Assembly (NCBI GenBank): GCA_017676125.1
Contig: GCA_017676125.1_4893.1
Length of the DNA: 52,493 bases
Source: a phage
Strand: one strand, 5' to 3'
Each line of letters begins with the position of its first letter. Position 1 is the stretch's first letter. Below the pieces are notes generated by a model that was given only the letters and a program-made list of their open reading frames with translations, made no database searches and was not told the DNA's origin. The position numbers were made by a program, and so were the translations under genes. Below, piece after piece: positions 283-49,669 of the stretch.

Positions 283-1731
283 ATGAATCTTGACTTTCAC
301 CTGCATGACAGACAAGGTGCCGCTCTGCGGTCTCAGGCAACTGAGATTCTGTACGGTGGTGCTGCTGGTGGTGGTAAGTCTCACCTTATGCGTGTAATGT
401 CAATTATCATGTGCTGCATGATACCTGACTTGCAGATTTACCTTTTCCGCCGAAACTATAACGACCTTACGGCTAACCACATGGTTGGTCCCACAAGTTA
501 TCCTGCCTTGCTGGACGGTATGTGCAAAGCTGGCAAGTGCAAGATTAACTACTCGAGCAACACGATTAAATTCTGGAACGGTGCGAACATCAAACTCTGT
601 CACCTCCAGTACGAAAAAGATATTTATACCTATCAGGGTGCGGAGATTCACGTTCTGCTGATGGATGAGCTTACTCACTTCACAGAAACGATGTACCGCT
701 TCTTGCGTAACCGTGTCCGACTCGGTGCTCTCAAAGTCCCTGAGAACTTTTTCCGGCCACTGCCACTCATCTTTTGTGGGTCAAACCCCGGTGGTGTTGG
801 TCATAACTGGGTTAAACGCACTTTCGTAACTGCTGCTCCTCCGATGAAAATCGTTAAGCAGGAAAAACGCGAAGGCGGTATGGCGCGTCAGTACATTCCG
901 GCTAAGATGACTGATAACCCTACGCTGATGGAAAACGACCCTGACTACGGTGACCGTCTTGAAGGTCTTGGTGACCCGGCTCTTGTTGCTGCGATGAAAG
1001 AGGGTGACTGGGATATTGTTGCTGGTGGTGCGCTTGACGACGTATGGTCAACCAAGTGTATTCTGCCGCGTATGCGTATTCCGAAAGGCTGGACTATCGA
1101 ACGTTCTCTTGACTGGGGTTCTACTCACCCGTTCTCTGTTGGTATCTGGGCTATTGCAAATGGTGCCTCGCTTACAGACGACGAAGGCAATGAGTACTTT
1201 ATTCCGCGTGGTTCAATTATACGTATAGCTGAATGGTATGGGTGCTCTGAAAAAGAAGCTAACAGGGGTATTAAATTATCTGCTGCCGAAGTCGCTCAAG
1301 GCATTATTCGTCTACAGGAAAATCTGCAGGCTGGTGGCTGGATTCAAAGCAACGTTAATCCTGGTCCGGCAGATAGTCAGATTTATGCGTGCAAGGAAAA
1401 AGACGTCGAGACTATCGCGAAGAAAATGGAAGACGAAGGCGTAACCTGGGTCAAGGCCGACAAGTCGCAAGGTTCGAGAATAAATGGCTTAGAGCTATTC
1501 CGTCAGCTTCTGAAAAATGTTAAGATGGACGAAACGGAAAAGCCGGGCATTTATTTCATGGAAAACTGTCCAGCAGCCATAAACACGTTGCCGGTTCTGC
1601 CGCGTGACAAGAACAACACGGAAGATGTCGACACGAACTCTGAAGACCACGTATACGATGATTGTCGTTACATGGTGTTGCGTGGCATCAACCGTTATAC
1701 TACCAAGCTCAAAATAAATATGGGACGGTAA
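283..1731 (+). CDS. terL: terminase large subunit
   Basis: 482 aa; Walker A-like ILYGGAAGGGKSHLM near N-terminus, acidic nuclease-like C-terminal half; followed directly by portal-sized gene. Confidence 0.85.
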   Translation: MNLDFHLHDRQGAALRSQATEILYGGAAGGGKSHLMRVMSIIMCCMIPDLQIYLFRRNYNDLTANHMVGPTSYPALLDGMCKAGKCKINYSSNTIKFWNGANIKLCHLQYEKDIYTYQGAEIHVLLMDELTHFTETMYRFLRNRVRLGALKVPENFFRPLPLIFCGSNPGGVGHNWVKRTFVTAAPPMKIVKQEKREGGMARQYIPAKMTDNPTLMENDPDYGDRLEGLGDPALVAAMKEGDWDIVAGGALDDVWSTKCILPRMRIPKGWTIERSLDWGSTHPFSVGIWAIANGASLTDDEGNEYFIPRGSIIRIAEWYGCSEKEANRGIKLSAAEVAQGIIRLQENLQAGGWIQSNVNPGPADSQIYACKEKDVETIAKKMEDEGVTWVKADKSQGSRINGLELFRQLLKNVKMDETEKPGIYFMENCPAAINTLPVLPRDKNNTEDVDTNSEDHVYDDCRYMVLRGINRYTTKLKINMGR

Positions 1732-1732
1732 A

Positions 1733-3295
1733 ATGTCGATAACCCCAAGCAGCACGCCGAACGTCGGATACCAGCGTCCTGAGCTGACTAAGAACGCTGG
1801 TAAGTACCGAATGATTAAGGACTGCATCGAGGGTCAGGAAGCTGTTAAAGCACGCGGTGATTTCTACTTGCCCCGTCCTGACCCTACGAACTGCACAGAA
1901 GAAAACATGATGCGGTACAATTCGTACTTGCGTCGCGCTGTGTTCTACAACGTACTGCAGCGAACTCTTTCGGGTATGACTGGCCTGGTATTCCAGCAGC
2001 AGCCTGAGATGCTGATGCCTGACGATATGGAAGTGCTGAAAGTAAATATCGACGGTGCAGGCATTGGTGCTATTCAGCAAATGCGTAAGTGCTTCAAGTC
2101 TGTTCTGGCTTTTGGTCGCGCAGGCCTGCTGACTGACTTCCCTAAAGCACGTATCGGTGAGTTTGGCGAGTCCATTGGCTTTACACGTAAAGAGCTGATG
2201 GACGGAGACGTACAGCCGACCGTAACGCTGTATATGCCATGGCAGATTATAAACTGGCGTGAAGAGTATCGCAACGGTAAAGTGATGCTCACTCAGGTTG
2301 TCATTTGCGAACAGATACCGGGGGTTACTGATGGCTTTCAGCAAGACTACACACCCGTGTGGCGTCACCTTTACCTGGATGAAGAAGGCAATTGCAACCA
2401 GTCTTTGTGGGTCAATAAGGGCGACAAGAATGCGCAGAACGTCTCCGGTGGCGCGTTGTATGTCACGCAAGAAAATGTTGTCTTACGCGACTCCAACGGC
2501 TTACCGCTGAAGTTTATTCCGTTCCAGTTTATTGGTTCTGAAACAAACAGCGCTGAGATTGACCCTCCGCCGATGTACGACTTAGCTGTGCTTAATATTG
2601 CACACTACCGTAACTCTGCTGACTACGAAGAGTCATGCTTCGTAACAGGTCAACCCACAGTATGGGCGTCTGGTCTTACTGAGGCATGGGTTGAAGATGT
2701 TCTGAAGGGTGAATTGCGACTCGGTTCGTTTGGTGGTATTCCGCTGCCGGCTAACGCCGCTGTAGGTATTATCCAGACCAACCCTAACACCCAGCCGTTT
2801 GAAGCGATGAAGCAAAAAGAAGCACAGATGATTGCAATCGGTGCTCGTCTGATTCGTGAGAATGGTAAGGTAGAACGACGCGAAGTTGAGATTAAGAATG
2901 AAGCGGCGTCTGAAGCTTCGCTTATCGTAACTGTTGCGCAGAACGTTGAAGCTGCTTATCGTAAGGCAATCGAATGGTGTGGCCTGTTCTACGGACACCC
3001 TAAAGAAGAAATTACGATTAACCTCAGCTACAACTTCATCTATAGCCAGTTGACTTATCAAGAACGTCAGCAGCTGGTTAACGAATGGATTGCCGGTGCT
3101 ATCACGTTTAGTGAAATGCGTAGCAATCTTAAACAAGCTGGCATTGCTAAGCTCACCGATGAAGAAGCCAAGAAGCTAATTGACGAAGAGCTGGCTGAAC
3201 GCGATGCGCGTGAGGTAGCAAAAGAAGCAGAAAAGAACGCTCAAGCAGCTAAGAACAGCGATGGGCAGGAAAATAATCCAGAAAAAACTGAATAA
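1733..3295 (+). CDS. portal protein
   Basis: 520 aa ORF immediately downstream of terL with 1-nt spacing; acidic C-terminus; canonical terminase-portal order. Confidence 0.7.
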   Translation: MSITPSSTPNVGYQRPELTKNAGKYRMIKDCIEGQEAVKARGDFYLPRPDPTNCTEENMMRYNSYLRRAVFYNVLQRTLSGMTGLVFQQQPEMLMPDDMEVLKVNIDGAGIGAIQQMRKCFKSVLAFGRAGLLTDFPKARIGEFGESIGFTRKELMDGDVQPTVTLYMPWQIINWREEYRNGKVMLTQVVICEQIPGVTDGFQQDYTPVWRHLYLDEEGNCNQSLWVNKGDKNAQNVSGGALYVTQENVVLRDSNGLPLKFIPFQFIGSETNSAEIDPPPMYDLAVLNIAHYRNSADYEESCFVTGQPTVWASGLTEAWVEDVLKGELRLGSFGGIPLPANAAVGIIQTNPNTQPFEAMKQKEAQMIAIGARLIRENGKVERREVEIKNEAASEASLIVTVAQNVEAAYRKAIEWCGLFYGHPKEEITINLSYNFIYSQLTYQERQQLVNEWIAGAITFSEMRSNLKQAGIAKLTDEEAKKLIDEELAERDAREVAKEAEKNAQAAKNSDGQENNPEKTE

Positions 3296-3300
3296 AGCTA

Positions 3301-3329
3301 TTTACTTTCGGTTTACCTGGCTATATAAT
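3301..3329 (+). promoter_or_regulatory. sigma70-like promoter TTTACT-N17-TATAAT upstream of scaffold/capsid genes
   Basis: -35 TTTACT at 3301-3306, 17-nt spacer, -10 TATAAT at 3324-3329. Confidence 0.55.
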
Positions 3330-3472
3330 CCTTCATGTCAACCGCGCAACAGCCGGCCACGAGAGTCTGCAGGGCTCAGTGGATTTCGGATGGCTGGCTG
3401 CGCGGTTTGACCCAAACCTGTTCGGAGCCCACTTGAGTGGATTGAGCCCCTCTCATATAGGATTGTAAAATT

Positions 3473-4186
3473 ATGGCACTTAAAACAGTTGTAACTGACC
3501 TTAACGAAGTTGATGAAGGCTTCCGTGGCCTGTATATCAAAGACGACGCGTCCGGTGCGTTTCGTTTGGATGTTGAACCAGACGAAAAAACGCTGAAAGA
3601 ATTAGAAGACCTGCGCAAAGAAAAACAGCGTATGGAGCAGCACACCAAAAAACTTCTCGAAGAGAAGAAAAAAGAAGCTGAACGTGCTCGCCTCGCTGAA
3701 GAAGAACGCGCACGTCGTGAGCGTGATGTTGAATCTCTTGAGCGTTCAATCAAAGAGAAGCATCAGGCTGAACTTGAACAGTATACCAGTCGTCAGGCAC
3801 AGCTGCAAGCACAGCTGGAAGCGCAGATGGTTGATAACATCGCGTTGAACCTGGCTAACCAACTCTCTGACACCCCGGCATTAATTATGCCACACATCAA
3901 GGCCCGACTGCGCGCTCAGGAAATTGATGGTAAGTGGCGTACTATCGTCGTGGATGTTATGGGTAACCCGACTGCTACAACGCCAGATGAGCTAGTGGAG
4001 CATATGCGCGCTGATAAGCAGTTTGCACCTCTTGTGCGTGGAACCAAGGCTGGCGGTGGCGGTGCCAACGGCGGCGGAGCTAATCCTGGTGGGAACGGCG
4101 GTGGCGAACAGCACACTTTCGGGGGCGGGGATGACCGCATAGCACGTGCTCGTGCTAAAATCCAAAACACACAATGGGGCAAATAA
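3473..4186 (+). CDS. scaffolding protein
   Basis: 237 aa, highly charged coiled-coil-like K/E/R-rich region, Gly-rich C-terminal tail; located between portal and major capsid gene. Confidence 0.6.
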   Translation: MALKTVVTDLNEVDEGFRGLYIKDDASGAFRLDVEPDEKTLKELEDLRKEKQRMEQHTKKLLEEKKKEAERARLAEEERARRERDVESLERSIKEKHQAELEQYTSRQAQLQAQLEAQMVDNIALNLANQLSDTPALIMPHIKARLRAQEIDGKWRTIVVDVMGNPTATTPDELVEHMRADKQFAPLVRGTKAGGGGANGGGANPGGNGGGEQHTFGGGDDRIARARAKIQNTQWGK

Positions 4187-4189
4187 GTT

Positions 4190-5167
4190 ATGTCACTGTA
4201 TATTTTTAACGAACAAGTACGTTCTACCGCCACCGAACTGGTCGACCAGGACGTACAGAAGTTCAACGAAGCTTCTGCAGGTACCCTTATCCTGGGTAAC
4301 CAGTACGTAATTGGTGATTACGTTGAGCAGGCAATGTGGCAGCTGGTTGATGGCATCGCTACTCGCCGTAACGCTTACGCTGGCACCAACAAAGTTGATG
4401 CTCAGACTCTGGGCCAGATTCTGGACCGCTCTGTTAAAATCGACGGCCGTGTTGGTCCTCTGAACATTACCGGTACTATGATGCGCCGCATCGGTGCAGG
4501 TGACACTGAGCCAGCAGCTGTTGTTGCTGCACAGGCTTCTGCTGCAATGTTCCAGGATTACCTGAACACCACTGCTGCATGTCTGGTAGCTGCTATCGGC
4601 GCAAACGCTGATGTTGTTCTGGACGTAACTTCAGGCTCCGGTGCTGCTGCAAACATCACCATGCAGAACCTGAACAAAGTCAACGCGAAGATGGGTGACC
4701 GTTCTCAGCAGATTCGTGCGTACATCATGCACTCTACTGCGTTCCACTCCCTCATCGATCAGGCTATCAACAACACGGAACACCTGTTCCAGATTGGTGA
4801 CCTGAACGTGTACAAAGACTTCCTGGGTCGTCGTTATGTCGTTTCCGACATCCCGGCTCTGGTTGATGGCGCCGGTGCTTCCGCTAAGTACCGCACTCTG
4901 GGTCTGACCCCGTCTGCTGCAATCGTTCAGGTCGGCGGCCTGTACGACATGGTTACCTCCGAGCAAACCGGTGGTGAAAACATCCTGCGTCAGATGCAGG
5001 GTGAATACGACTTCAACGTGTCGCTGAAAGGCTACAGCTGGGTCGGTCACAAAGCTGGTCAGTCTCCGACTGATGAAGACCTGGCTGCTCAGGCGTCCTG
5101 GTCTAAAGTTGCGACTTCCAACAAAGACACCGCTGGTGTTATGTTGCTGGCTAAGTCTGCAATCTAA
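4190..5167 (+). CDS. major capsid protein
   Basis: 325 aa ORF after scaffold gene; followed by strong intrinsic terminator; position typical for major capsid protein. Confidence 0.7.
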   Translation: MSLYIFNEQVRSTATELVDQDVQKFNEASAGTLILGNQYVIGDYVEQAMWQLVDGIATRRNAYAGTNKVDAQTLGQILDRSVKIDGRVGPLNITGTMMRRIGAGDTEPAAVVAAQASAAMFQDYLNTTAACLVAAIGANADVVLDVTSGSGAAANITMQNLNKVNAKMGDRSQQIRAYIMHSTAFHSLIDQAINNTEHLFQIGDLNVYKDFLGRRYVVSDIPALVDGAGASAKYRTLGLTPSAAIVQVGGLYDMVTSEQTGGENILRQMQGEYDFNVSLKGYSWVGHKAGQSPTDEDLAAQASWSKVATSNKDTAGVMLLAKSAI

Positions 5168-5187
5168 CCCACAAACGGGACTAACAA

Positions 5188-5216
5188 AAGGCGAGCTGAC
5201 GAGCTCGCCTTTTTTA
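5188..5216 (+). terminator. rho-independent terminator after capsid gene
   Basis: GC stem GGCGAGC/GCTCGCC (5190-5209) followed by TTTTTTATTT. Confidence 0.75.
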
Positions 5217-5245
5217 TTTACACGTATAAAGTTCTGGTATATAAT
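5217..5245 (+). promoter_or_regulatory. sigma70-like promoter TTTACA-N17-TATAAT
   Basis: -35 TTTACA 5217-5222, 17-nt spacer, -10 TATAAT 5240-5245, directly after terminator. Confidence 0.6.
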
Positions 5246-5271
5246 CGGACTAAACTTGCTGGAGGCTTTCT

Positions 5272-5772
5272 ATGGCATACACACTTGTTGTGGAAGACGG
5301 TTCAATTGTTCCGGGTGCTAACTCGTATGTTAGCGCTGCAGAAGTTGATGAGTTTATCACTAACGAAGGTATTCTCATTCAACCAGGAACTGACCCGTAT
5401 TACCAGGCTGCCAAAGCAGCTATTCGACTTGATAACCAGTTTAACTGGCTAGGTCGTAAGGTCAGCAAAACACAGAGCATGGCTTGGCCCCGTACTGGCC
5501 TCGGTGCATGTAATGTTGACATCGCTGAGTCTGTAATTCCGCGAGAAGTTAAGCTGGCACAGCTTTATATGATGGCCAGTGTATTGAGCTACGACGGTGA
5601 AGAAGGTGTGCGTAGCGACCAGGCTTTGCGCCGTAAGAAAGTTGGTAACCTGGAGATTGAATACTTCGACTCCAAATCAGGCGTTACCGGTGCAACTGAC
5701 CTTTGGACGTCAGACGTCAAGGCCATGCTCAAGCACCTTGTGGGTGCATCCCTGAGAACACGGAGAGTATAA
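5272..5772 (+). CDS. head-tail connector/adaptor protein (gp6-like)
   Basis: 166 aa ORF directly after capsid gene; N-terminal YVSAAEVDEF-type segment resembles head-tail connector proteins; gene order. Confidence 0.5.
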   Translation: MAYTLVVEDGSIVPGANSYVSAAEVDEFITNEGILIQPGTDPYYQAAKAAIRLDNQFNWLGRKVSKTQSMAWPRTGLGACNVDIAESVIPREVKLAQLYMMASVLSYDGEEGVRSDQALRRKKVGNLEIEYFDSKSGVTGATDLWTSDVKAMLKHLVGASLRTRRV

Positions 5773-6260
5773 TGATTCGTATACGCCTTGAACGTCGCGA
5801 CAAACAAAAGTTCGAGTTCACCTACCGTGCCTTTAAGTCGTTTGAAGGTCAAGGCGTATCAGTAGGTGTTCATCCAGAGCACAACAGACGTGTAAATCCC
5901 AGGGACCGTATAACAAACGCCGAGCTAGCAATGGTGCATGAGTACGGTCTTAACGGCCTGCCAGAACGAAGCTTTCTTCGTAGTGCTGTTGGTGGCAGGG
6001 GTAAAGGCCGACAGGCAATAAACAAAGCTTTCCGTGATAATGTGCCTGCTGTTCTCAGAGGAAGCATGACTGCGCATGAGCTTAATGACAAAATAGGTCG
6101 TATGCTTGTTGACGCTGTTCACGACAGAATGGACAGTGACGTGCCACCTCCTAACACCGAGCTGACAGAAGAACGCAAACGCGGGCCAGGTACACTTAGA
6201 GAATCTATGCAGTTGTATGATTCGATAGGGTACAAAGTTGGCAGAAACTGGAGGCTATAA
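5772..6260 (+). CDS. head-tail joining / head closure protein (hypothetical)
   Basis: ATG at 5772 overlaps upstream stop (TAATG); 163 aa; position in head-tail joining block. Confidence 0.45.
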   Translation: MIRIRLERRDKQKFEFTYRAFKSFEGQGVSVGVHPEHNRRVNPRDRITNAELAMVHEYGLNGLPERSFLRSAVGGRGKGRQAINKAFRDNVPAVLRGSMTAHELNDKIGRMLVDAVHDRMDSDVPPPNTELTEERKRGPGTLRESMQLYDSIGYKVGRNWRL

Positions 6261-6637
6261 TGCTCAAGATAACTTCGCTAATGAAGGATAAAACCTTTGT
6301 AGCATTAACAGATGTTCTTCTCCGAAATGATTCGCGCTTACCAAACGGCGACTTCGAAGACGAATATACAGCTGCAAAGTATCTGTGTAACATTCAACCT
6401 GGTGCAGCTACTAACCAGCCTAACCTGTTGACTAAAGACGATGGCGAGCATGAGTTCCCACGTATTGCGATATACTGTGGACAAGAACTAAAGCTCGGAG
6501 ACTTCGTTATATACGAAGACCAGCCATACCGTGTATTCCGTATCGACCCATGGAGTCGTCATGGCCACTACTACGTTACAGCAATTCTCCATAAAGGACC
6601 TCAGGGAGCTCGTTCAGAAGCTTTTAACATTACCTGA
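6260..6637 (+). CDS. hypothetical virion morphogenesis protein
   Basis: 125 aa ORF, start overlaps upstream stop; in head-tail joining block. Confidence 0.4.
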   Translation: MLKITSLMKDKTFVALTDVLLRNDSRLPNGDFEDEYTAAKYLCNIQPGAATNQPNLLTKDDGEHEFPRIAIYCGQELKLGDFVIYEDQPYRVFRIDPWSRHGHYYVTAILHKGPQGARSEAFNIT

Positions 6638-24391: not shown

Positions 24392-24895
24392 ATGCAACTG
24401 TCATTTTTCAACTTTACAGAATACAACCCACAAAGGACGGCGGAGACACTTCCGCTGATTAAGCAAGGCGTTGTATTCATCAAGGATAACAATGGTAATG
24501 ACTGGCGCAAGCTGGCTAAAGAGCTGGCTAAGAATAAAGAGCTGGTTCATTACATTGTTGTGGACAAGTACAATGCTGTTGCCGCGTATGCTAACGACCC
24601 TACGCTACTGTTTCCTGTTAATTGCGATTTGCATATTGTTGAGTCTGTCCCTGTTGCTAAGTTTGCGGATTGCTATTACGAATGGTCGTACGTTAATGGC
24701 AAGTTTGTTAAGCACTCTGAACTGCAGAAGGTGATTGCAGAAGAACGCCTGCAGGAAGAACAGGCTTGGGTTGAAGGACAACTCGACACTGAAGAAGATG
24801 AGGAACGTATTATCGCTCTCCATAAATTCCGTGCCGATTTGTTGCTGCTTGTTATGTCAGATGCGCCGCATATCGACTGGCCTGTACGACCGTAA
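24392..24895 (+). CDS. tail fiber assembly chaperone (paralog 2)
   Basis: 167 aa; paralog of 23846-24388. Confidence 0.5.
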   Translation: MQLSFFNFTEYNPQRTAETLPLIKQGVVFIKDNNGNDWRKLAKELAKNKELVHYIVVDKYNAVAAYANDPTLLFPVNCDLHIVESVPVAKFADCYYEWSYVNGKFVKHSELQKVIAEERLQEEQAWVEGQLDTEEDEERIIALHKFRADLLLLVMSDAPHIDWPVRP

Positions 24896-31289: not shown

Positions 31290-31674
31290 TTCGTAACTCC
31301 TTACAAACAGTTTCGATAAACTTACGTTTAATTTCTGTAGACCAGATAATATGACGAGCCTGTTCTAAAGTGTCCCAACGTTCTTTACCCACAGGAAAGG
31401 GAACAATGAAAAGGCCGGTACGGGATATGCGCTTGATAAACGGGAATTTACAGCGCATGGTTGTTTCAAACTTGATAAAGTTTGTTTGCACTTCGCGTGT
31501 AAACTTGACCTTATCAAATTCACGTTCAAGAGTTTGAGCAATGTTGCATACTTCCTGGAAAGAAGATGCAGGCAAGTAATCTTCGCGGCCGACGGTGTTC
31601 ACGTAGTCGATTTGGCCCTCTAGCCGAAGTATCCAAATCCTGTAATAAGCTTCAGCAACACGTTGTAGGTTCAT
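31276..31674 (-). CDS. hypothetical protein
   Basis: 132 aa ORF downstream of a consensus promoter (minus strand), GAGGAGAG RBS. Confidence 0.5.
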   Translation of the reverse strand: MNLQRVAEAYYRIWILRLEGQIDYVNTVGREDYLPASSFQEVCNIAQTLEREFDKVKFTREVQTNFIKFETTMRCKFPFIKRISRTGLFIVPFPVGKERWDTLEQARHIIWSTEIKRKFIETVCKELRNAIQ

Positions 31675-31700
31675 TGTATCTCTCCTCTAAAAGATAACTT

Positions 31701-31729
31701 ATTATACCACATCACTCTCTAGTGGTAAA
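31701..31729 (-). promoter_or_regulatory. sigma70-like promoter (minus strand) TTTACC-N17-TATAAT
   Basis: On minus strand: -35 TTTACC (plus 31724-31729), 17-nt spacer, -10 TATAAT (plus 31701-31706); spacer contains CCAC...GTGG inverted repeat. Confidence 0.6.
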
Positions 31730-33152: not shown

Positions 33153-34803
33153 TTCCCCAGTCGTAGTTCATGATTTGTGGGTAGGGTCGTTTAATCCATA
33201 CCTTGATGCGCTTAGGAATAGCCAGCTCACCCTTACGGCGAATAAACTCATCGCATGTTTCAGGCGGTTCTGTTCCTGCAGCATTACGCCACCAGGCATC
33301 TGCCATTTGCTTAGCATTGCCATGGGCCTCTATATTTACCCATGTTGTATACACTTCCAGGTTTGAGTAGTACACAACCTTTATACTGTCAGGCCGTCCC
33401 TGCTTCTGGAATAAAGAATAGTTTACCAGCGTAACATCTTTATCCACAACACGAAGCTGACCGTTAGTCATTACCTCTTCTTCTGATGAAGTGAAGGCAA
33501 TGGCAGGTCCGTTAACTGTAAACTCAAATTCATGTCCGCACATCGGATATACACCATTCTCGTCTGGCGTACTTCCTTTAGCCGGATGCTTACATGTACG
33601 GGCTGCATAGCCACTTACCTGGTGACAGATAGGGCACTCTTTACCGCCAGGTGTTTTCTCTGACCGTTTCTTTTTCTTCTTACCAAGACGAGGCGGAACA
33701 GCCGGGTCGTCAATAGGTCCAAGGTCAATGGTGTTAGATGTAAAGTCCATAACAAGACAGTCATGCTTGCCAGGCGCTGTACGTAATCCTCGACCAAGTA
33801 TCTGCACCCACAAGGCAACAGACGTGGACGGGCGCAAGATGCCGAGCATATCAATCTCAGGATAGTCAAATCCTGTCGTCAATACGTTTACGTTTACACA
33901 GACCCGTGCTCGTCCGCTTGTAAACTCTTCCAGTGCGGCTTCACGTTCTTTCTTTGTAAGACCGCCATGCACAACTACAGTCTGCCACCCTCGCAGATTA
34001 AATTCGTCTGCTATGTTGTGGGCGTGCTCAACACTTGTGGCAAATACAAGAACGTGGTTCCTGTCTTTACCGTAGTGCATCATCTCACGAATAGCCGCGA
34101 CTGTTATACTATGTTGGTTGGCTACCTTCTCAAGCTCTGACGGGATGTAGTCACCCATCCTTTCGCCAACATTACTGGTGTCAATCTTGGTTAACACTTT
34201 CTTGTTGACCAGGCGCGACAGGAAGCCTTCATTTACCAGTCGGGTGAATGCGTCAGGTGTTGTAAGGTCATAGCAGATGTCGGTAAATATACCACAGTCC
34301 AGCAAGTGACCACCTGCCAAGCGATACGGAGTTGCTGTGAGTCCTGTTACCTTTACCTTAGGATTAAGCTCTTTGAAGTGAGCAATAACCTTACGGTATG
34401 TTGTTTCAGACTTCTCAGGAACAAGATGGGCTTCGTCAATGAATATAAGATTGAACTTGCCTGCTTCTTCCAGGTTCTTAATGATTGACTGTACCGATGC
34501 TACAACGATACGACCTGAAAAGTCTTTGTGTCCTGCTCCTGAAGAGTAGATAGATACTGGGGCTTGTGGCCAGTGGCGTACAATCGCTTTGGCGTCTTGT
34601 TCTACCAGCTCCTTGACGTGTGTCAGTATAAGAATGCGCTGACGGGGATAGCTGGTAAGAATATCCTTCATCAGCATACCAAGCACAGGTGATTTACCTG
34701 AACCTGTCGGCATGACAATAAGTGGATTACCACTATAAGAATTGAAGTACGACCACCAGGCTGTGACCGCTTCTTGTTGATACCAGCGAGCTTCAAAAGC
34801 CAT
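33133..34803 (-). CDS. superfamily II DNA helicase (DEAH-box)
   Basis: 556 aa; Walker A PTGSGKS, motif II FIDEAH, TATP, motif VI QILGRGLR; C-terminal Cys cluster (CPICH...C...C) zinc ribbon. Confidence 0.85.
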   Translation of the reverse strand: MAFEARWYQQEAVTAWWSYFNSYSGNPLIVMPTGSGKSPVLGMLMKDILTSYPRQRILILTHVKELVEQDAKAIVRHWPQAPVSIYSSGAGHKDFSGRIVVASVQSIIKNLEEAGKFNLIFIDEAHLVPEKSETTYRKVIAHFKELNPKVKVTGLTATPYRLAGGHLLDCGIFTDICYDLTTPDAFTRLVNEGFLSRLVNKKVLTKIDTSNVGERMGDYIPSELEKVANQHSITVAAIREMMHYGKDRNHVLVFATSVEHAHNIADEFNLRGWQTVVVHGGLTKKEREAALEEFTSGRARVCVNVNVLTTGFDYPEIDMLGILRPSTSVALWVQILGRGLRTAPGKHDCLVMDFTSNTIDLGPIDDPAVPPRLGKKKKKRSEKTPGGKECPICHQVSGYAARTCKHPAKGSTPDENGVYPMCGHEFEFTVNGPAIAFTSSEEEVMTNGQLRVVDKDVTLVNYSLFQKQGRPDSIKVVYYSNLEVYTTWVNIEAHGNAKQMADAWWRNAAGTEPPETCDEFIRRKGELAIPKRIKVWIKRPYPQIMNYDWGNGYGAR

Positions 34804-34861
34804 TTATCATCTCCTCATTAACTTTATATATTATACCACTTCCTTGTGGTAAAGTATACTT

Positions 34862-37808: not shown

Positions 37809-38038
37809 TAATGATAGTCCTCGTAAAGTGATTCTTCATCGCAGTACATACGATAAAGAGCTTCTTCGGCTTCTTCCAGGGTGTCAAACTCCTCGCCACA
37901 GACGGAGTATTTTGTGGGTTCATCGAATGACTCGACGATGTGCCAGTCATGATGAATACCGTATGTCCACAAGTCGCAGTCATCTTTTGCAACAAGCTTA
38001 CGTGTGGAACGAAATTGTGCTAGAGTATTGATGCTCAT
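37808..38038 (-). CDS. hypothetical protein
   Basis: ATG at 38038 with AGGAGAGAG RBS (track ORF starts at GTG 38077); 76 aa acidic. Confidence 0.45.
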   Translation of the reverse strand: MSINTLAQFRSTRKLVAKDDCDLWTYGIHHDWHIVESFDEPTKYSVCGEEFDTLEEAEEALYRMYCDEESLYEDYH

Positions 38039-38098
38039 ATTCTCTCTCCTCATGTGTATAGAGGTATTATACACCACTTACATGGGGTAAGTACACTA

Positions 38099-41907: not shown

Positions 41908-41937
41908 TTTACTCTGGTTTAATAACGTGTATATAAT
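41908..41937 (+). promoter_or_regulatory. sigma70-like promoter TTTACT-N18-TATAAT for primase operon
   Basis: -35 TTTACT 41908-41913, -10 TATAAT 41932-41937, upstream of plus-strand gene at 41968. Confidence 0.5.
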
Positions 41938-41967
41938 GAGAGCCTCACAAACAAGAGGAGAGACTCA

Positions 41968-42300
41968 ATGATAAAGCCAAAACTGTTGCGGCATATTCGC
42001 AACGGTATTAAGCTACTCGCCGAAGGCAATGAATATGCCTGCAAGCAACGCGGTATTACAAAAGTCGGCCTGTTCAATAAAGAGTTACCGACTCGCTACT
42101 TTACCAAATCACCATTAACACTCGTACCTGCAGCGGAGTATTATAAAGACCCCGAAGCAGCTCGGGCTAAAATCAAGGAAGGTCTTGACCGACTTGTAGA
42201 GGAAGGCTATTTGACAGTACGTCAACACACTGAATCATCTTATTACTACAAGCCAACTTCTAAGGTAACCAGCAATGACAATGACGAGTCAGCCGAGTGA
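41968..42300 (+). CDS. hypothetical protein (possible DNA-binding/regulatory)
   Basis: 110 aa ORF with GAGGAGAG RBS, first gene of plus-strand island, overlaps primase gene start. Confidence 0.5.
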   Translation: MIKPKLLRHIRNGIKLLAEGNEYACKQRGITKVGLFNKELPTRYFTKSPLTLVPAAEYYKDPEAARAKIKEGLDRLVEEGYLTVRQHTESSYYYKPTSKVTSNDNDESAE

Positions 42301-44809: not shown

Positions 44810-44821
44810 GTAGGTAAATCA

Positions 44822-44864
44822 AGGGCTTGGGTAATTGTAAAAATCCTAAGCCCTTATTTTTTAA
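44822..44864 (+). terminator. rho-independent terminator after primase-helicase gene
   Basis: Stem AGGGCTTGGG/CCTAAGCCCT with 13-nt loop followed by TATTTTTTAA. Confidence 0.65.
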
Positions 44865-45033
44865 GCTTATTTTACAAACTGATTAATATTTAAACTATAA
44901 TTAAATATATGGACCCTAAGAGTATGATTTTATTACTCTTTTACAAATCATAATATATGGGCTCCCTATAAAAAGATTAAGGGGGTAATAAGGGGATCCA
45001 AGTACCGGATAAAAGGGGGTATATATTTATTTT

Positions 45034-45053
45034 ATTATTATTATTATTATTAT
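45034..45053. repeat. (ATT)n microsatellite in AT-rich intergenic region
   Basis: ATTATTATTATTATTATTAT run, about six to seven units. Confidence 0.8.
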
Positions 45054-45210
45054 ATATTATTAATTATATTAGAAGTAATAAAAACAGCTACTTAGAGGCG
45101 TCTATATGTATGATCCGGTTTATCTCTTTATTAATATCAGAACCGGATGAAAAAAATTTACGCTGGCGAAAAAAATAAAAAAGCCGGATTGATAAATAAA
45201 TCTGTAGACG

Positions 45211-45239
45211 TTTACACTATAAAAAAGATGTGTTACAAT
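45211..45239 (+). promoter_or_regulatory. sigma70-like promoter TTTACA-N17-TACAAT
   Basis: -35 TTTACA 45211-45216, -10 TACAAT 45234-45239, upstream of resolvase-like gene. Confidence 0.5.
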
Positions 45240-45293
45240 ATTTATCAATGTTGCTGGTTACCAAATCTTTGGATTATATACGAGGCTGAATAA

Positions 45294-45725
45294 ATGGTAA
45301 ATATTAGAGCGAAGGGGCAGAACTTTGAGCGTAAAATGGCTAAGAAGTTCAATAGCTCGTTCGGATTAACTGTTGAGCGCAATCTTCAACAGTCTATTAA
45401 TGGCGGGGATGACTTGCTTGGTGTACCGTTTTTCAGCGTTGAACTGAAGAAGCACAATACCAAGTCTATCGGAACATGGTGGAGACAGTGTGCGGCATCG
45501 GCAAAGGCTCAGAACAAGATGCCGGTACTGATATACGAACTACCAAGAAAACAGCCTACCGTGGTGATGAATAAAGCTGATGTGATTGACTGTTTTCCAA
45601 GTGGCACGACTTTTAACGAGGCATCGAATCGCCTCTTTGTGGGTCTAGTAGAATTAACATGGGAACAATTTTGCCGGGTCTACAACTATTACGTTGCGCC
45701 CGGCACTCAATATCACGTCAATTAA
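45294..45725 (+). CDS. Holliday junction resolvase-like PD-(D/E)XK endonuclease (Hjc-like, putative)
   Basis: 143 aa; N-terminal KGQNFERK...GGDDLLGV...FSVELKK pattern (G.xFER, D, ExK) resembles archaeal-type Hjc resolvases. Confidence 0.45.
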   Translation: MVNIRAKGQNFERKMAKKFNSSFGLTVERNLQQSINGGDDLLGVPFFSVELKKHNTKSIGTWWRQCAASAKAQNKMPVLIYELPRKQPTVVMNKADVIDCFPSGTTFNEASNRLFVGLVELTWEQFCRVYNYYVAPGTQYHVN

Positions 45726-45907
45726 TCTTGTTTCAGCTCGTCACAAATGACACGCTGATTTTTGGCAGGGATAATACCAAGATTTAGCAGGGTGTATGGA
45801 CTATCAGCGACGCATTGTTCAACGGTAGTCCATTCAGGTTTGGATTCAACAATTTCGTAACTACAATCATGAGTAGCCACACATGTTGCCAGGATTAAGC
45901 CAATCAC
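45722..45907 (-). CDS. hypothetical small protein, hydrophobic N-terminus
   Basis: 61 aa ORF, GTG start overlapping upstream stop (GTGA); convergent with resolvase gene. Confidence 0.4.
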   Translation of the reverse strand: MIGLILATCVATHDCSYEIVESKPEWTTVEQCVADSPYTLLNLGIIPAKNQRVICDELKQD

Positions 45908-46083
45908 AAGTAATCACCTTCAACCAGGAACTCAAACAGCTGGTTGTAAACGTTGCAACCTTTAGCGAAAGAGCTTTCAGCAGGTTTACCGTCGCGGACA
46001 ATCATCATGTACTCACCGCCATGGATGTCCACCCAGTATTGCATGCCACCTTTGACCGGGTTACGTTGTAAGAATTTAAACAT
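45904..46083 (-). CDS. hypothetical small protein (59 aa, below ORF-track cutoff)
   Basis: ATG at 46083 overlaps stop of upstream gene (TAATG); translated by eye. Confidence 0.35.
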   Translation of the reverse strand: MFKFLQRNPVKGGMQYWVDIHGGEYMMIVRDGKPAESSFAKGCNVYNQLFEFLVEGDYL

Positions 46084-46328
46084 TATTTGCTCCTTATTCC
46101 AAGTTTATTCAATAACCAAATTGTCATGTCAACCCATGTTAACGGTACAGTTTTCGGGGGTTGATAATTCCAGCAGCTTGCAGTTCTTTGTATTTCTGCT
46201 TGGCGCCGCTCCGCTTCGCGTAATACCGCATCGTCAGAAGTGCCGGCAGAAAAAAGATCGGTAACACCAGATAAATCGCGTTGATTAACACGTCGAGCAA
46301 TGTCATATAAGTCATCCTTAGAAAACAT
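46083..46328 (-). CDS. hypothetical protein
   Basis: 81 aa ORF in coupled minus-strand chain. Confidence 0.45.
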   Translation of the reverse strand: MFSKDDLYDIARRVNQRDLSGVTDLFSAGTSDDAVLREAERRQAEIQRTASCWNYQPPKTVPLTWVDMTIWLLNKLGIRSK

Positions 46329-46534
46329 AAGCCAATACCATAAGAATTATCATAAAGACCACAACCAGCTTCCTCATTGCCCGACCTTCAGCATATGCAG
46401 GATTCACAACAGAATACTCAACAACATGTTTACAGCGGACCATAAGGCCTCCACTTGTGGGTTAATTCAATCATGAGGACTTTCATCAAATCCTCATTGT
46501 TGAATCAATCACCAGCGTCAGGACTTGACTAATA

Positions 46535-46738
46535 TCACTCTATCATTACCTGAACTACTATTATACACTCTTTATTGAAGCGAGTAAACACTTTTCCACC
46601 ATTAGTGCGTTTAGCCCCAGATTTTAGAGCTGACTGGCACCAGATATGCCACTCCTCAACTGTCAAGAATTTTTGCTCAGCTTTGGGTGGCAATCCATGG
46701 GCAAGGTCTACCGTCGTAAATTTGACTAGTGGCATCAC
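46535..46738 (-). CDS. hypothetical protein
   Basis: 67 aa ORF; start overlaps upstream stop. Confidence 0.45.
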   Translation of the reverse strand: MMPLVKFTTVDLAHGLPPKAEQKFLTVEEWHIWCQSALKSGAKRTNGGKVFTRFNKECIIVVQVMIE

Positions 46739-47124
46739 TTGACCTCAAATTTTGACTCGTCGTATTCCGGATCAGTCACGTCCCGGGTCGCACAATTTTT
46801 GATTGCTTCCCAGTAACGTTGGGCATCATCGCCATCGGCATAAACCGTCCAGTAGCCGTAACCACCTTCAAATCTGTCCCAGGCTTGTTCCCAGACTTTG
46901 CCATCTTCCAGCTTGTACCAAGTTGGACGACTGTCAAACTCACGAATTGGATGGTACCCCAACAAGGGATTCATCAGGTCAATAATGTCTTCCCGACTAA
47001 TCTCCTGGTTCTCCCACAACACCGTCATGAATTGCTCAAACTTGAAGGCGTTTGGCAGAACTTTGAGTACTTTACCGTCACAATATACGGTATAGGTACC
47101 ATCTTCGCATTTTGCACTGTACAT
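46735..47124 (-). CDS. hypothetical acidic Trp/Tyr-rich protein
   Basis: 129 aa ORF preceded by conserved leader GAAATTATTCACAATCAACAGGAGAGAGAAAC. Confidence 0.5.
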   Translation of the reverse strand: MYSAKCEDGTYTVYCDGKVLKVLPNAFKFEQFMTVLWENQEISREDIIDLMNPLLGYHPIREFDSRPTWYKLEDGKVWEQAWDRFEGGYGYWTVYADGDDAQRYWEAIKNCATRDVTDPEYDESKFEVK

Positions 47125-47197
47125 GTTTCTCTCTCCTGTTGATTGTGAATAATTTCAAAAATGAACTATCACAACTTTGGACAGTTCATTGTTGAAA

Positions 47198-47371
47198 CTA
47201 TGCTAACTTTGTTGCGATCTGAATTGTCAGCCGGAAATCTTCCATCAAGTTATCAAACTCTTTGGAACCACCAACAGCATCAGATATTTGATCTTTCACA
47301 ATTTGGGCATTTGATTCCAGTAATTCAATCAGGTGCGCCAATTCGTCTTCAGTCAATTTCAGATCTTTCAT
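47198..47371 (-). CDS. hypothetical small acidic protein
   Basis: ATG at 47371 overlaps upstream stop (ATGA); 57 aa, acidic helical. Confidence 0.45.
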   Translation of the reverse strand: MKDLKLTEDELAHLIELLESNAQIVKDQISDAVGGSKEFDNLMEDFRLTIQIATKLA

Positions 47372-47625
47372 AATGCATCCACCCAAGCCATAACTTTTGC
47401 CAGTCTTACAACGTCTTCATGGTCCCGCTCGCCATCAGAAAATTCGCTGGCGATGATACCCATAATTGACGCCAGATTCATGTTGATGATGTATGCGTGT
47501 TGGCGCACTTCATCAATTCCTGAATCTATCACCAGTTCCGCAAATTCTTGTGAACCTTCATCCCACTCAGCCCAATACTGCTCAGCATAAAAGTCCAGTT
47601 CTTTTTTCATCTCAATGTCAGTCAT
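47368..47625 (-). CDS. hypothetical small acidic protein
   Basis: 85 aa, strongly net-negative (many D/E). Confidence 0.5.
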   Translation of the reverse strand: MTDIEMKKELDFYAEQYWAEWDEGSQEFAELVIDSGIDEVRQHAYIINMNLASIMGIIASEFSDGERDHEDVVRLAKVMAWVDAL

Positions 47626-47630
47626 TTTGA

Positions 47631-47789
47631 TTACTCCTCAGAACCTGAAAATTTGTCGTCAATGGCTTCAACAATATAATCAAGAGTTGAAGTGTGAGAA
47701 CTATCAGAAAAAGTGCCCATCTTCTCTAACTCAATCATCATATCACGCAAGGCCATCGCCTGGTCTTTGGTCAGTTTGATTTTAAGCAT
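47631..47789 (-). CDS. hypothetical small acidic protein
   Basis: ATG at 47789 preceded by conserved leader (second copy); 52 aa. Confidence 0.45.
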   Translation of the reverse strand: MLKIKLTKDQAMALRDMMIELEKMGTFSDSSHTSTLDYIVEAIDDKFSGSEE

Positions 47790-47853
47790 GTTTCTCTCCT
47801 GTTGATTGCGAATAACTTTCATTGATGGCACTACTTGAGCGCCATCTCAAAAA

Positions 47854-48423
47854 TTACTCTTTAGTTTCTTGTGCTTCAGTTTCAGGTTTTACTTCAGTAT
47901 CAGGTTTTTTGCCAGTTACTGATTTGCCTTCGGTCACTTTACCAGATTTTACATCATTACGGTAGTATGACATATATGACTGGATAACACGTTTTGCCTT
48001 AATATCATCCGCTTCCATTCCGCAAGCTTTCATCGCATCAGCGAGCGCCAATTTGGAATCTTCCTTATCCATCAGGTTGTAATCTTTGAACACCAGATAG
48101 CAGGTATCTTTAGTTGACGGACCAGATGACGATTTGCGAGAGCCACCAGCGGATGCTCGTGTTGTCGCAACTTTGACTTCTTCAACTTCCAGTTGGTTCA
48201 GCTCGTCAAACAAAGCCTTCACCAGCACTTCTTTGGAGTCTTTGACGCTTACAGTACTTTCATCATTAAGCGACTTAATCATCTTAATGATCTGGTTGTT
48301 GGCAAAGTACTGAAGACTATCCATCTGCACTACAATAGTGCCAAGACTTTCAGTAGTCAGACCAGATTTCACAGACTCGACAGAAAAAGCGGAAGTCAGG
48401 TAAACGTAGTTGATAGTTGTCAT
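47854..48423 (-). CDS. hypothetical protein
   Basis: ATG at 48423 with GAGGA RBS (track ORF extends to 48492); 189 aa, Lys/Glu-rich C-terminus. Confidence 0.5.
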   Translation of the reverse strand: MTTINYVYLTSAFSVESVKSGLTTESLGTIVVQMDSLQYFANNQIIKMIKSLNDESTVSVKDSKEVLVKALFDELNQLEVEEVKVATTRASAGGSRKSSSGPSTKDTCYLVFKDYNLMDKEDSKLALADAMKACGMEADDIKAKRVIQSYMSYYRNDVKSGKVTEGKSVTGKKPDTEVKPETEAQETKE

Positions 48424-48518
48424 TTGATGTATCCTCGTTGATAGAATTTTTGATATGTGCCAATCCTTGGCAAGTAAGTCCAAACATGACAACTTTTGTC
48501 AAGTTGTCATGATTGAAA

Positions 48519-48821
48519 TCACTTCGCGCTTGCGTTTTCAACGGCTTGTACAACTTTCAACAAATGCCTGAAGTCATCATGATAAATTTCATTAAAGCCA
48601 TCTGCCGCAAAGTTTTCGCCAATTAAGATCAGTCTTTCGCGGACCAAGTCAATCAATAGTTTATTGTCAGTTATTTCCGCACCTGTAACAAGTTCAACAA
48701 ATAATTGCTGTACGTTATCATAACGGATGTTGCTTTCAATACACACTTGGCGCATGTCTTCAACTATTGACATGATTGTGACTTGCATTTCTACGTCAGA
48801 AGTGATGCTATTCAGTTTCAT
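48519..48821 (-). CDS. hypothetical acidic protein, first gene of leftward early operon
   Basis: 100 aa ORF adjacent to divergent control region. Confidence 0.5.
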   Translation of the reverse strand: MKLNSITSDVEMQVTIMSIVEDMRQVCIESNIRYDNVQQLFVELVTGAEITDNKLLIDLVRERLILIGENFAADGFNEIYHDDFRHLLKVVQAVENASAK

Positions 48822-49194
48822 AATAGTTACCTTTGTACTAGTTTCCAGGTGTGACTACTGTTACCAATAGTCACTAGTTGAAACTACTACTTGTGTTACT
48901 ATCAACAAGAAACATGTTACCAAATTGTTAAAGAGCAAAAGGTACCATTGACATCTACCAGATGTACCTGTTGACTGGTTAAGTACTACCTACCTAATCT
49001 AAACCATACCAATATCCTTTAGACCAGTTAGACTGGTCAATCAGTCATCACATTCAATAAATATATAATAGACCAATCGCTATTGATTGTACATAAAAGA
49101 ATTGCAAGTTTATGCAAGTTTTTAGAAATGATAATCACTTGCGATTGAGAGTGGTTCTCATATGCAATTGATATAGTTTCACATGTAATTATTC

Positions 49195-49440
49195 AATCCA
49201 AAATGGTCGGCAGGGGTTATAATAACATAGGGGTGCCACTTAAAGGAGCCGGCGAAATTATTTCTAAAAATATAATTTCAATCTGAATTATAGACGCTTT
49301 GTACTATACCGGCCGAAGTAGTTCACACGGTAATTGTACCAATCATAATAGTTACCAGAGTAATCATTTCAATTGAAATAGGTGCGGCGGGGGGGTAATT
49401 TCGCAGGGGTGCTACCTGCCAGGAGCCAGCAAAATTTTTT
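49195..49440. repeat. two ~75-bp imperfect direct repeats in divergent control region
   Basis: 49195-49270 and 49365-49440 share TCAAT..AAA.GG.GGC.GGGG.TAAT...AGGGGTGC.AC.T...AGGAGCC.GC.AAATT.TTT skeleton. Confidence 0.6.
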
Positions 49441-49669
49441 ATTTTTTCTCTATTTTCTCCTTATCAGGACCAATCATCATCAGATTGATACAACAGGAGC
49501 TAACCTTTTGCTTAACACAATAATAAGTGAAGCCCCTCTAAAATTTTTTTATATTTTTCGGAAATTGTGTAGACACTCACTAAAAAGTGGTGTACTTTCT
49601 CTCCTCCACGCGCTATCATTAATGTGAATCATCAAACGGCCTCACGGTCTCCTACTTGTGGGTAACATT

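Follow-up and report, generated by a model that had tools for sequence, protein, structure and literature searches.

The 52,493-nucleotide contig GCA_017676125.1_4893.1 (GenBank assembly GCA_017676125.1), referred to here as the window, carries on its minus strand an operon of small genes whose intergenic gaps hold a family of interrupted hairpins, the subject of this study. About 60 phage records match positions 45000-49500 at 92-98% identity by megablast, all of them Rosemountvirus, and by sequence the window is a complete genome of this genus. Rosemountvirus comprises the BP63-like myoviruses of Salmonella and E. coli, with genomes of about 52.5 kb. None of the ten operon proteins scanned had a Pfam match, and their PHROG families are all of unknown function. 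An 840-bp non-coding region with several sigma-70-like promoter sites lies upstream of the operon, and the promoter scan placed the operon's promoter-like sites only upstream, in 48822-49400. In the E. coli phage fHy-Eco03, the homologous early operon lies wholly inside an annotated 3.7-kb terminal repeat (L016, 1906-5604). Because of the upstream promoters and of the position of this counterpart, the operon is presumed, as a reasonable reading, to be early. The same position in the terminal repeat suggests that the physical ends of Rosemountvirus genomes may flank or include 45000-49500 and that the numbering of the record may be arbitrary. In one well-annotated close relative neither a phage RNA polymerase nor a ribonuclease is annotated, and the early polycistronic transcript is most likely made by the host RNA polymerase.

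The first-pass annotation of this DNA had drawn attention to two look-alike leaders of about 32 nucleotides, each preceded by a hairpin, directly 5' of the genes starting at 47124 and 47789. We analyzed the leaders and the surrounding gaps by RNA folding, by comparison with related phages and with a covariance model, which was built from 14 sequences (five sites, two genera) and run unfiltered over the whole genome. The features concerned are as follows, with the scores of this model in brackets.

45722-48821, minus strand: operon of about 11 small genes, from the open reading frames, which holds all hairpins
48835-48890, minus strand: site 0, a related, looser hairpin within the operon's 5' leader (weak, 15.3 bits, E = 1.4)
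48519-48821, minus strand: first gene, 100 residues, stop codon UGA at 48521-48519
48472-48525, minus strand: hairpin D, between the 100- and 189-residue genes (59.2 bits, E = 3.5e-10)
47854-48423, minus strand: 189-residue gene, stop codon UAA at 47856-47854
47810-47860, minus strand: hairpin B (45.8 bits, E = 3.1e-7)
47790-47809, minus strand: spacer and ribosome-binding site after hairpin B; unpaired, GGAGAGA, AAC, then the ATG of the 52-residue gene
47631-47789, minus strand: 52-residue gene, directly downstream of the hairpin B unit
47147-47204, minus strand: hairpin A, paired over 47149-47201 (55.1 bits, E = 2.8e-9)
47125-47146, minus strand: spacer and ribosome-binding site after hairpin A; A/C-rich and unpaired, GGAGAGA, AAAC, then the ATG of the 129-residue gene
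46735-47124, minus strand: 129-residue gene, directly downstream of the hairpin A unit
46513-46534, minus strand: remnant of a further hairpin, E, with the last bases of a gene of about 100 residues, from comparison of the DNA upstream of hairpin C across relatives and from the gene-order map
46460-46512, minus strand: hairpin C, upstream of the 41-residue gene (62.4 bits, E = 7.4e-11)
46318-46443, minus strand: 41-residue membrane-protein gene, downstream of hairpin C

Each of the four intergenic gaps of the operon forms one long interrupted hairpin, with folding z-scores of -3.5 to -4.1, and all share a common layout. Above a lower helix of 5-12 bp, whose 5' strand has the stop codon of the upstream gene, come a small internal loop, in which CA typically faces GA, then 8-11 bp of upper helix and a variable terminal loop; downstream of the helix, a short A/C-rich spacer without structure leads to the strong ribosome-binding site of the next gene. 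The family consensus reads AGU(A/G)AUUUCAA, CA, AUGAnnnnnn, loop, nnnnnnUCAU, GA, UUGAAAUUAyU, then A/C-rich single strand, GGAG and the start codon.

RNAfold gave about 21-23 bp for each of hairpins A and B. In hairpin A (-23.9 kcal/mol, z = -4.1; 23 bp), the lower 5' arm AUAGUUUCAA, in which the upstream gene has its stop codon UAG (47200-47198), pairs with the lower 3' arm UUGAAAUUAU (47158-47149), which overlaps the first leader; an upper stem of 11 bp, AUGAACUGUC/GAUAGUUCAU, stands above an internal loop of one or two bases. Hairpin B (-22.9 kcal/mol, z = -3.5) has a lower stem of 12 bp, in which GAGUAAUUUUUG, with the stop codon of the 189-residue gene, pairs with UGAAAGUUAUUC; its lower 3' arm (47821-47810) overlaps the second leader, and its upper stem GAUGGCGCU/AGUGCCAUC has 9 bp and a 5-nucleotide loop. 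Hairpin D counts 22 bp, with the stop codon UGA in the lower 5' arm (-41.2 kcal/mol and z = -4.1 for a 146-nucleotide fold), and hairpin C (z = -3.9) is followed by UUAACCCACAAGUGGAGG..AUG. Site 0 combines a lower stem AGUUUC/GGAAACU, a 5x5 internal loop and an upper stem of 10 bp (RNAfold, -33.7 kcal/mol, z = -5.9), and the same fold is found in the phages S144 and sp8. An outer pairing of 48904-48895 with 48830-48821 takes up the bases just before the first AUG and part of a weak ribosome-binding site; processing at site 0 might, speculatively, affect translation of the first gene.

The two leaders are indeed present on the minus strand, GAAATTATTCACAATCAACAGGAGAGAGAAAC-ATG at 47156..47122 and GAAAGTTATTCGCAATCAACAGGAGAGAAAC-ATG at about 47820..47787. 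Their likeness, put at about 90 percent, amounts to 29 matches in 33 aligned columns (about 88%), and the string given for the second leader is found as well, apart from the trivial slip that it has 31 nucleotides within a 32-nucleotide span. A 22-nucleotide core, TTATTCRCAATCAACAGGAGAG, occurs exactly twice in the 52.5 kb when up to 3 mismatches are allowed, and in none of 100 shuffles. As plain sequence, the 32-nucleotide leader has no further copies in the window, and a search of IMG/VR returned the same phage group only. The genes that follow the leaders were rightly described as unrelated, their products belonging to different protein families. What had to be revised was the anatomy. Leader and hairpin had been taken for separate parts, but the lower helix takes its 3' strand from the 5' third of the leader (UUGAAAUUAUU): the first 8-12 nucleotides of each leader form this strand and pair around the upstream stop codon. 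The hairpins that had been named do exist, but are merely the upper tier of these larger structures.

The sequence shared by A and B consists of three parts, namely the pairing-constrained lower 3' arm, the unpaired spacer and the ribosome-binding site. The spacers of A and B are nearly identical (CACAAUCAAC) in the lineage of the window only; site A of other Rosemountviruses has UAUCAAUAGGAGAG or CACAACAAGAGAGAG. Across relatives, the site A spacer changes in length and sequence (UUCACAAUCAAC here, UUCGCAAUCAAU in yarpen, UAUCAAU in triss, JEP7 and sp8, UUCACAACAA in BP63 and KE24), and the site B spacer is nearly constant. In yarpen, the positions with A/G variants are swapped between sites A and B relative to the window. 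Because the spacer is not conserved and the yarpen variants are swapped, the roughly 90% identity over 32 nucleotides is best explained by a recent exchange between the A and B copies in this lineage, and not by constraint.

The leader of the gene starting at 38038, which had been grouped with the other two, falls outside the hairpin family, with which it shares only the ribosome-binding site and a purine-rich spacer. The sequence GAGGAGAGAGAAT-ATG is real, but its context differs, as it stands directly behind a TATAAT promoter-like box. At the stringency of the first-pass annotation, the 12-mer match was not significant (7 found in the genome versus 3.7 expected). GGAGAGA occurs six times in the genome, in five cases 3-5 nucleotides before an ATG and in three just behind TATAAT boxes, and to judge from this sequence pattern the copy at 38038 is the usual strong ribosome-binding site of the phage. 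As a separate observation, a promoter-like box (GTGGTATAAT/GTGTATAAT/TATATAAT) followed 15-25 nucleotides later by (A)GGAGAGA and ATG recurs at 31660-31715 (minus), 34800-34845 (minus), 38030-38080 (minus) and 41930-41970 (plus); these boxes probably head transcription units of replication and middle genes.

Where two copies had been claimed, the operon holds four or five. The covariance model gave exactly four hits in the 52.5 kb, hairpins A to D, at 46-62 bits (E from 3e-7 to 7e-11) and all four on the operon's sense strand; the other hits at E<1 were solely the reverse complements of the same four sites, at 28-38 bits. The family in this genome is made up of four conserved hairpins and a fifth, looser copy, site 0. 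Two other ways of searching were of little use: a whole-genome ranking by folding energy was uninformative, with G+C-rich coding sequence at the top, and a permissive single-hairpin scan was too noisy before filtering. The first-pass annotation had named absence from relatives among the findings that would speak against its proposal, but the element is present in about 56 records and in four genus-level groups, with four or five sites in each relative examined. Loughboroughvirus phages, whose 189-residue protein is about 69% identical to that of the window, carry the sites, as do the Erwinia phage SOI901 and fHy-Eco03, in which this protein is about 63% identical and the stems are new and compensated.

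Conservation of the pairing was assessed in the 14-sequence alignment together with per-sequence folds; a MAFFT alignment of 38 sites misplaced the 3' arms of E-type sites and was not used for pair counts. Standard pairs filled 91% of the cells, and 15 of the 22 pairs had changed on both sides. None of 500 shuffles reached these values (91%, 15 pairs), and when the partners were slid by 1-3 columns the paired fraction was 29-47%. RNAalifold independently gave the same two tiers. Helix length in the 38 distinct sites is 18-24 bp (mean 20), with folding energies of -19 to -25 kcal/mol. Their loops differ freely, whereas the stems persist. In Loughboroughvirus, CAGACCUCU/AGAGGUCUG has wholly replaced the upper stem that site B has in Rosemountvirus, GAUGGCACU/AGUGCCAUC; the upper stem of site D is ACAAC/GUUGU in most phages and GGGAC/GUCCU in JEP7, brunost and sp8; and fHy-Eco03 has a lower stem UUUUUA/UAAAAA where the others have UUUCAA/UUGAAA.

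Several properties indicated on which molecule this selection acts. G-U pairs outnumbered A-C mismatches by 29 to 6, 35 of the 38 sites folded more stably in the sense than in the antisense orientation (by 4.4 kcal/mol on average), and the spacing of the conserved half-sites differed by more than 10 bp among sites. Because of these three observations, the comparison of sequences and modeled folds speaks for an RNA structure of the messenger sense rather than for a palindrome in the DNA. No Rfam family matched the hairpins, the best E value being 0.4 and all scores far below the gathering scores, and we found no mention of hairpins or transcripts in the literature on Rosemountvirus and Loughboroughvirus. 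Taken as a whole, the comparative data strongly support the hairpins as a new RNA family.

The promoter scan found no sigma-70-like site on the minus strand in 47125-47204 or 47790-47860. A promoter within the leader was considered, as the TTGAAA of the 3' arm resembles a -35 element, but no -10 element lies 16-18 nucleotides away, and this candidate was rejected.

The hairpins are most likely, on balance, processing signals for host ribonuclease III (RNase III) in the early transcript. Of the earlier proposal of a repeated translation-initiation or RNA-processing module, the conserved intercistronic RNA module stands, with RNA processing as its best-supported role, and the anatomy needed completion. 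From the analogy with known substrates we infer the enzyme, the position of the cut and the effects on stability and translation. Host RNase III would recognize each helix of about two turns and cut its 3' side, in or beside the internal loop. A protective upper hairpin would then form the end of the upstream message, and the downstream one would start with about 30 nucleotides, GAUUGAAAUUAUU...GGAGAG...AUG, essentially the leader that had first been noticed. This would be the same working mode as that of the early sites R0.3 to R1.3 of phage T7.

About 22 bp fit into E. coli RNase III, which in vivo favors intergenic regions within transcripts and 5' untranslated regions (PMC6212723). The sites agree with both features, having 18-24 bp (mean 20) and lying between cistrons or in the operon leader. 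Internal loops lead to single-strand cuts that leave stabilizing 3' hairpins (PMC3867540), and a conserved internal loop is present 8-11 bp below the terminal loop in all sites, with AU-rich pairs flanking it on both sides. The enzyme requires a helix of at least 11 bp beside the cut, and the optimum for the proximal box is GC, then AU or UA, then AU (PMC1540722). AUG/CAU or AAG/CUU is conserved at the base of the upper stem, which fits this optimum if the register is that of T7 R1.1, as we assumed.

Several points weigh against cleavage by RNase III. The proximal-box match depends on the assumed cleavage register, and site B of Rosemountvirus has an extra G-C pair adjoining the presumed cut, a G-C at that position being known to lower cleavage in a minimal T7-derived substrate. 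The internal loops are mostly 2x2, smaller than those of T7, so that cleavage could be double-stranded, or weak. Furthermore, the covariance model of the sites found nothing at E<=1 in T7 800-6600, which contains R0.3 to R1.3, and no Rfam family matched. Because the model misses the T7 sites and Rfam offers no match, the link with T7 is one of functional analogy, or at most that of a new family of like kind, and not homology. Finally, stable intercistronic hairpins can act uncleaved, as barriers to 3' exonucleases or as insulators.

We considered this last possibility, that the hairpins are passive elements, left intact by RNase III, that stop 3'-to-5' exonucleases and thereby give the segments of the operon different stabilities, in the manner of repetitive extragenic palindromic (REP) sequences or of the malE-malF hairpin, insulate ribosome-binding sites from whatever lies upstream, or both. 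Their stability (-19 to -25 kcal/mol), their position, invariably between a stop codon close upstream and an unstructured spacer with a ribosome-binding site close downstream, and the fact that this site never lies within the helix at A, B, C and E are all as expected for such elements. Yet a barrier needs neither a conserved internal loop with conserved flanking pairs (AUG/CAU, UUCAA/UUGAA) nor a length held near 20 bp, and a helix of about 20 bp in an enterobacterial messenger is expected to meet RNase III anyway (PMC6212723). We regard a purely passive function as unlikely.

It is quite unlikely that the hairpins are binding sites of a phage-encoded RNA-binding protein, such as a translational repressor or processing factor, that coordinates the early cassettes. 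The internal loop and the adjacent pairs are conserved in sequence beyond what pairing requires, and the early proteins, all of unknown function, offer room for such a factor. However, a scan of ten operon proteins detected no RNA-binding domain, variation is greatest in the upper stems and loops, which proteins usually recognize, and the family persists in lineages with differing sets of early genes.

A further alternative is that the elements act as DNA, either as recombination joints made of inverted repeats, similar to the promoter-stem-loop elements (PeSLs) of T4-type phages, or as palindromic operators, the RNA fold being incidental. This would account for the permuted order of cassettes among lineages, with a hairpin at every junction, for the loss of one cassette in at least three ways, for the replacement of the site D upper stem by a C-like stem in three phages, and for the swap of the A and B leader variants between yarpen and the window. 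Selection on RNA is indicated instead by the fully compensated replacement of stems, by G-U pairs being more numerous than A-C mismatches, and by the consistently more stable fold of the sense strand. Besides, a half-site spacing that varies by more than 10 bp is ill-suited to a dimeric DNA-binding protein, no promoter stands beside the hairpins, unlike in PeSLs, and recombination at repeats can be a by-product of their likeness. A function at the DNA level appears very improbable. That the hairpins are intrinsic terminators or attenuators which split the operon into temporal segments, as their position directly after stop codons and a UUUUU behind the upper stem of site A in the window and yarpen might suggest, is hardly credible, since the terminator scan was empty at the sites, the stems are AU-rich, the U run is missing at site A of most relatives (CAUGAUUGAA) and at B, C, D and E, what comes after the full helix is CACAAUC, GCAAUC or CACAAGU and not a U tract, and there are no downstream promoters to restart transcription.

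The early region is mosaic, and its cassette boundaries coincide with the hairpins. Gene orders are given below, where hp denotes a hairpin and each F-number a protein family.

Window: hp0-F0-hpD-F1-hpB-F2 F3 F4-hpA-F5 F7-hpC-F8...
S144: hp0-F23-hpD-F1-hpB-F3 F4-hpA-F34 F7-hpE-F32-hpC-F8...
SOI901: F23-hp-F32-hp-F5 F7-hp-F1-hp-F8...
fHy-Eco03: F23 F4-hp-F5 F7-hp-F1-hp-F8...

Early-gene blocks have been replaced, lost and permuted among these four lineages, with a hairpin at each joint. The gene of about 100 residues (F32) and hairpin E are present in SE13, SenM-1, S144 and SOI901. Among Rosemountviruses, this block disappeared by at least three routes, which left different remnants of hairpin E (46513-46534 in the window; counterparts L001, L008, L010 and L013): BP63, triss and KE24 show a clean loss, the window and sp8 keep the 5' half of hairpin E, and yarpen and JEP7 have most of it left, adjoining hairpin C. 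In JEP7, brunost and sp8 (L008:3453-3507, L011:3428-3482, L013:3453-3507), the 3' arm of the site D upper stem is identical to that of hairpin C, which suggests gene conversion between paralogous hairpins.

In these genome comparisons the hairpins coincide with the recombination joints of the early cassettes. A role as exchange joints would follow, as a secondary inference, from the fact that the hairpins share sequence; their use as joints may be either a selected role or a by-product of likeness. We also entertained the idea that the family constitutes an exchange system of the early region, in which a self-complementary joint, possibly read by a phage factor, would allow cassettes to be swapped, permuted and deleted between co-infecting relatives and still be processed and translated. 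We hold this idea to be tentative and rather doubtful; if true, the system would be an RNA-structured counterpart of the T4-type promoter-stem-loop cassettes.

Other features of the genome were noted in passing. AT content is very high in the long non-coding region 44810-45290, which has an (AATAAT)n run near 45040-45075; its counterpart bears repeat_region annotations in yarpen and triss. The other long non-coding region, 48822-49657, contains repeated blocks (GGCTCC..GCACCCCT; ATTGAAAT) and promoter-like sites in both orientations. The two are candidates for origin and early-promoter regions. On the plus strand, at 5143-5212, the major capsid gene is followed by a canonical terminator-like hairpin (GGCGAGCU gacg AGCUCGCC, then UUU), which a copy of ACCCACAAA precedes.

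The commonest 8-mer of the genome is ACCCACAA, with 31 copies versus about 17 for the next unrelated word. It has no wider consensus, and its copies lie in coding and intergenic DNA, one of them directly after hairpin C. The 9-mer ACCCACAAR has 28 copies (20 on the minus and 8 on the plus strand) where about one is expected, and no shuffle reached 5; examples are 773-781 (minus), 5167-5175 (plus), 24426-24434 (plus), 46454-46462 (minus) and 49655-49663 (minus). The ACCCACAA motif is also enriched in KE24, ZCSE2, SE13 and SOI901 and is absent from the stretch of T7 examined. One may speculate that it is the site of a protein acting on DNA, for example a primase-helicase or a factor for nicking or packaging.

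With 38 distinct sequences and strong covariation, the hairpin family is suited to Rfam and to the annotation of phage genomes, and it explains the mosaic early region in that cassette boundaries coincide with hairpins. If the hairpins are RNase III sites, the plan of early expression known from T7, in which one long transcript made by the host polymerase is cut at repeated hairpins into stable, well-translated units, would also operate in unrelated myoviruses that are used for biocontrol of Salmonella and E. coli. The general picture of phage gene expression would stay as it is, and the real 5' and 3' ends of a dozen early messages would be predicted.

Among known systems, the REP and other intercistronic stabilizer hairpins of enterobacteria are likewise stable, follow stop codons and can set the stability of a transcript segment. 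Unlike the present family, which is specific to a phage clade, they have their own consensus and lack a conserved internal loop in the middle of the helix. The PeSLs of T4-type phages consist of a promoter and a stem-loop and form repeated, mobile intergenic cassettes that flank small variable early genes. Here too repeats flank shuffled small genes, the four lineages differing in gene order with hairpins at the junctions. In PeSLs, however, an early promoter is joined to the stem-loop, whereas the present hairpins have none and selection acts on the RNA pairing. In the Bacillus phages SP82 and SPO1, sites in the early mRNA are cut by Bacillus RNase III and belong to a small family of conserved stem-loops with internal loops. 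Like the sites described here, they lie between early genes of a large virulent phage and are recognized by host RNase III, which for our sites is the proposed enzyme; host and enzyme specificity differ, and no relation in sequence is to be expected.

The closest parallel is offered by the sites R0.3, R0.5, R1, R1.1 and R1.3 of T7 (and T3), which we folded, for T7, at their published cut positions. There are clear differences. The phage studied here is an unrelated myovirus, in whose close relative neither an own RNA polymerase nor a T7-like protein kinase is annotated; the internal loops of T7 are about 4x5, as against mostly 2x2 here (site 0 excepted); and its upper stems are GC-rich, whereas the stems here are AU-rich. 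No homology is detectable, and what the two groups share is layout and short motifs, cleavage of the present sites being a prediction. The shared layout is extensive, however. In both phages, several paralogous copies occur within one operon, between the cistrons of an early transcript that is made by the host polymerase (here, most likely), with one copy in its 5' leader; site 0 stands there behind several promoter-like sites, as R0.3 does. R0.3, R0.5 and R1.1 have, like the hairpins here, two tiers, with an internal loop about 10 bp under a small terminal loop and about 20 bp paired in total. On the 3' side, these three T7 sites read ..UAU|GAUU.., and the sites here ..CAUGAUU.. or ..CUUGAUU... 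R0.5 carries the stop codon of T7 gene 0.4 within its lower 5' arm (GAGUGAUAG), the stop codons here are placed likewise (AGUGAUUUC, AGUAAUUUU, AUAGUUUC), and in both phages the ribosome-binding site of the next gene follows shortly downstream.

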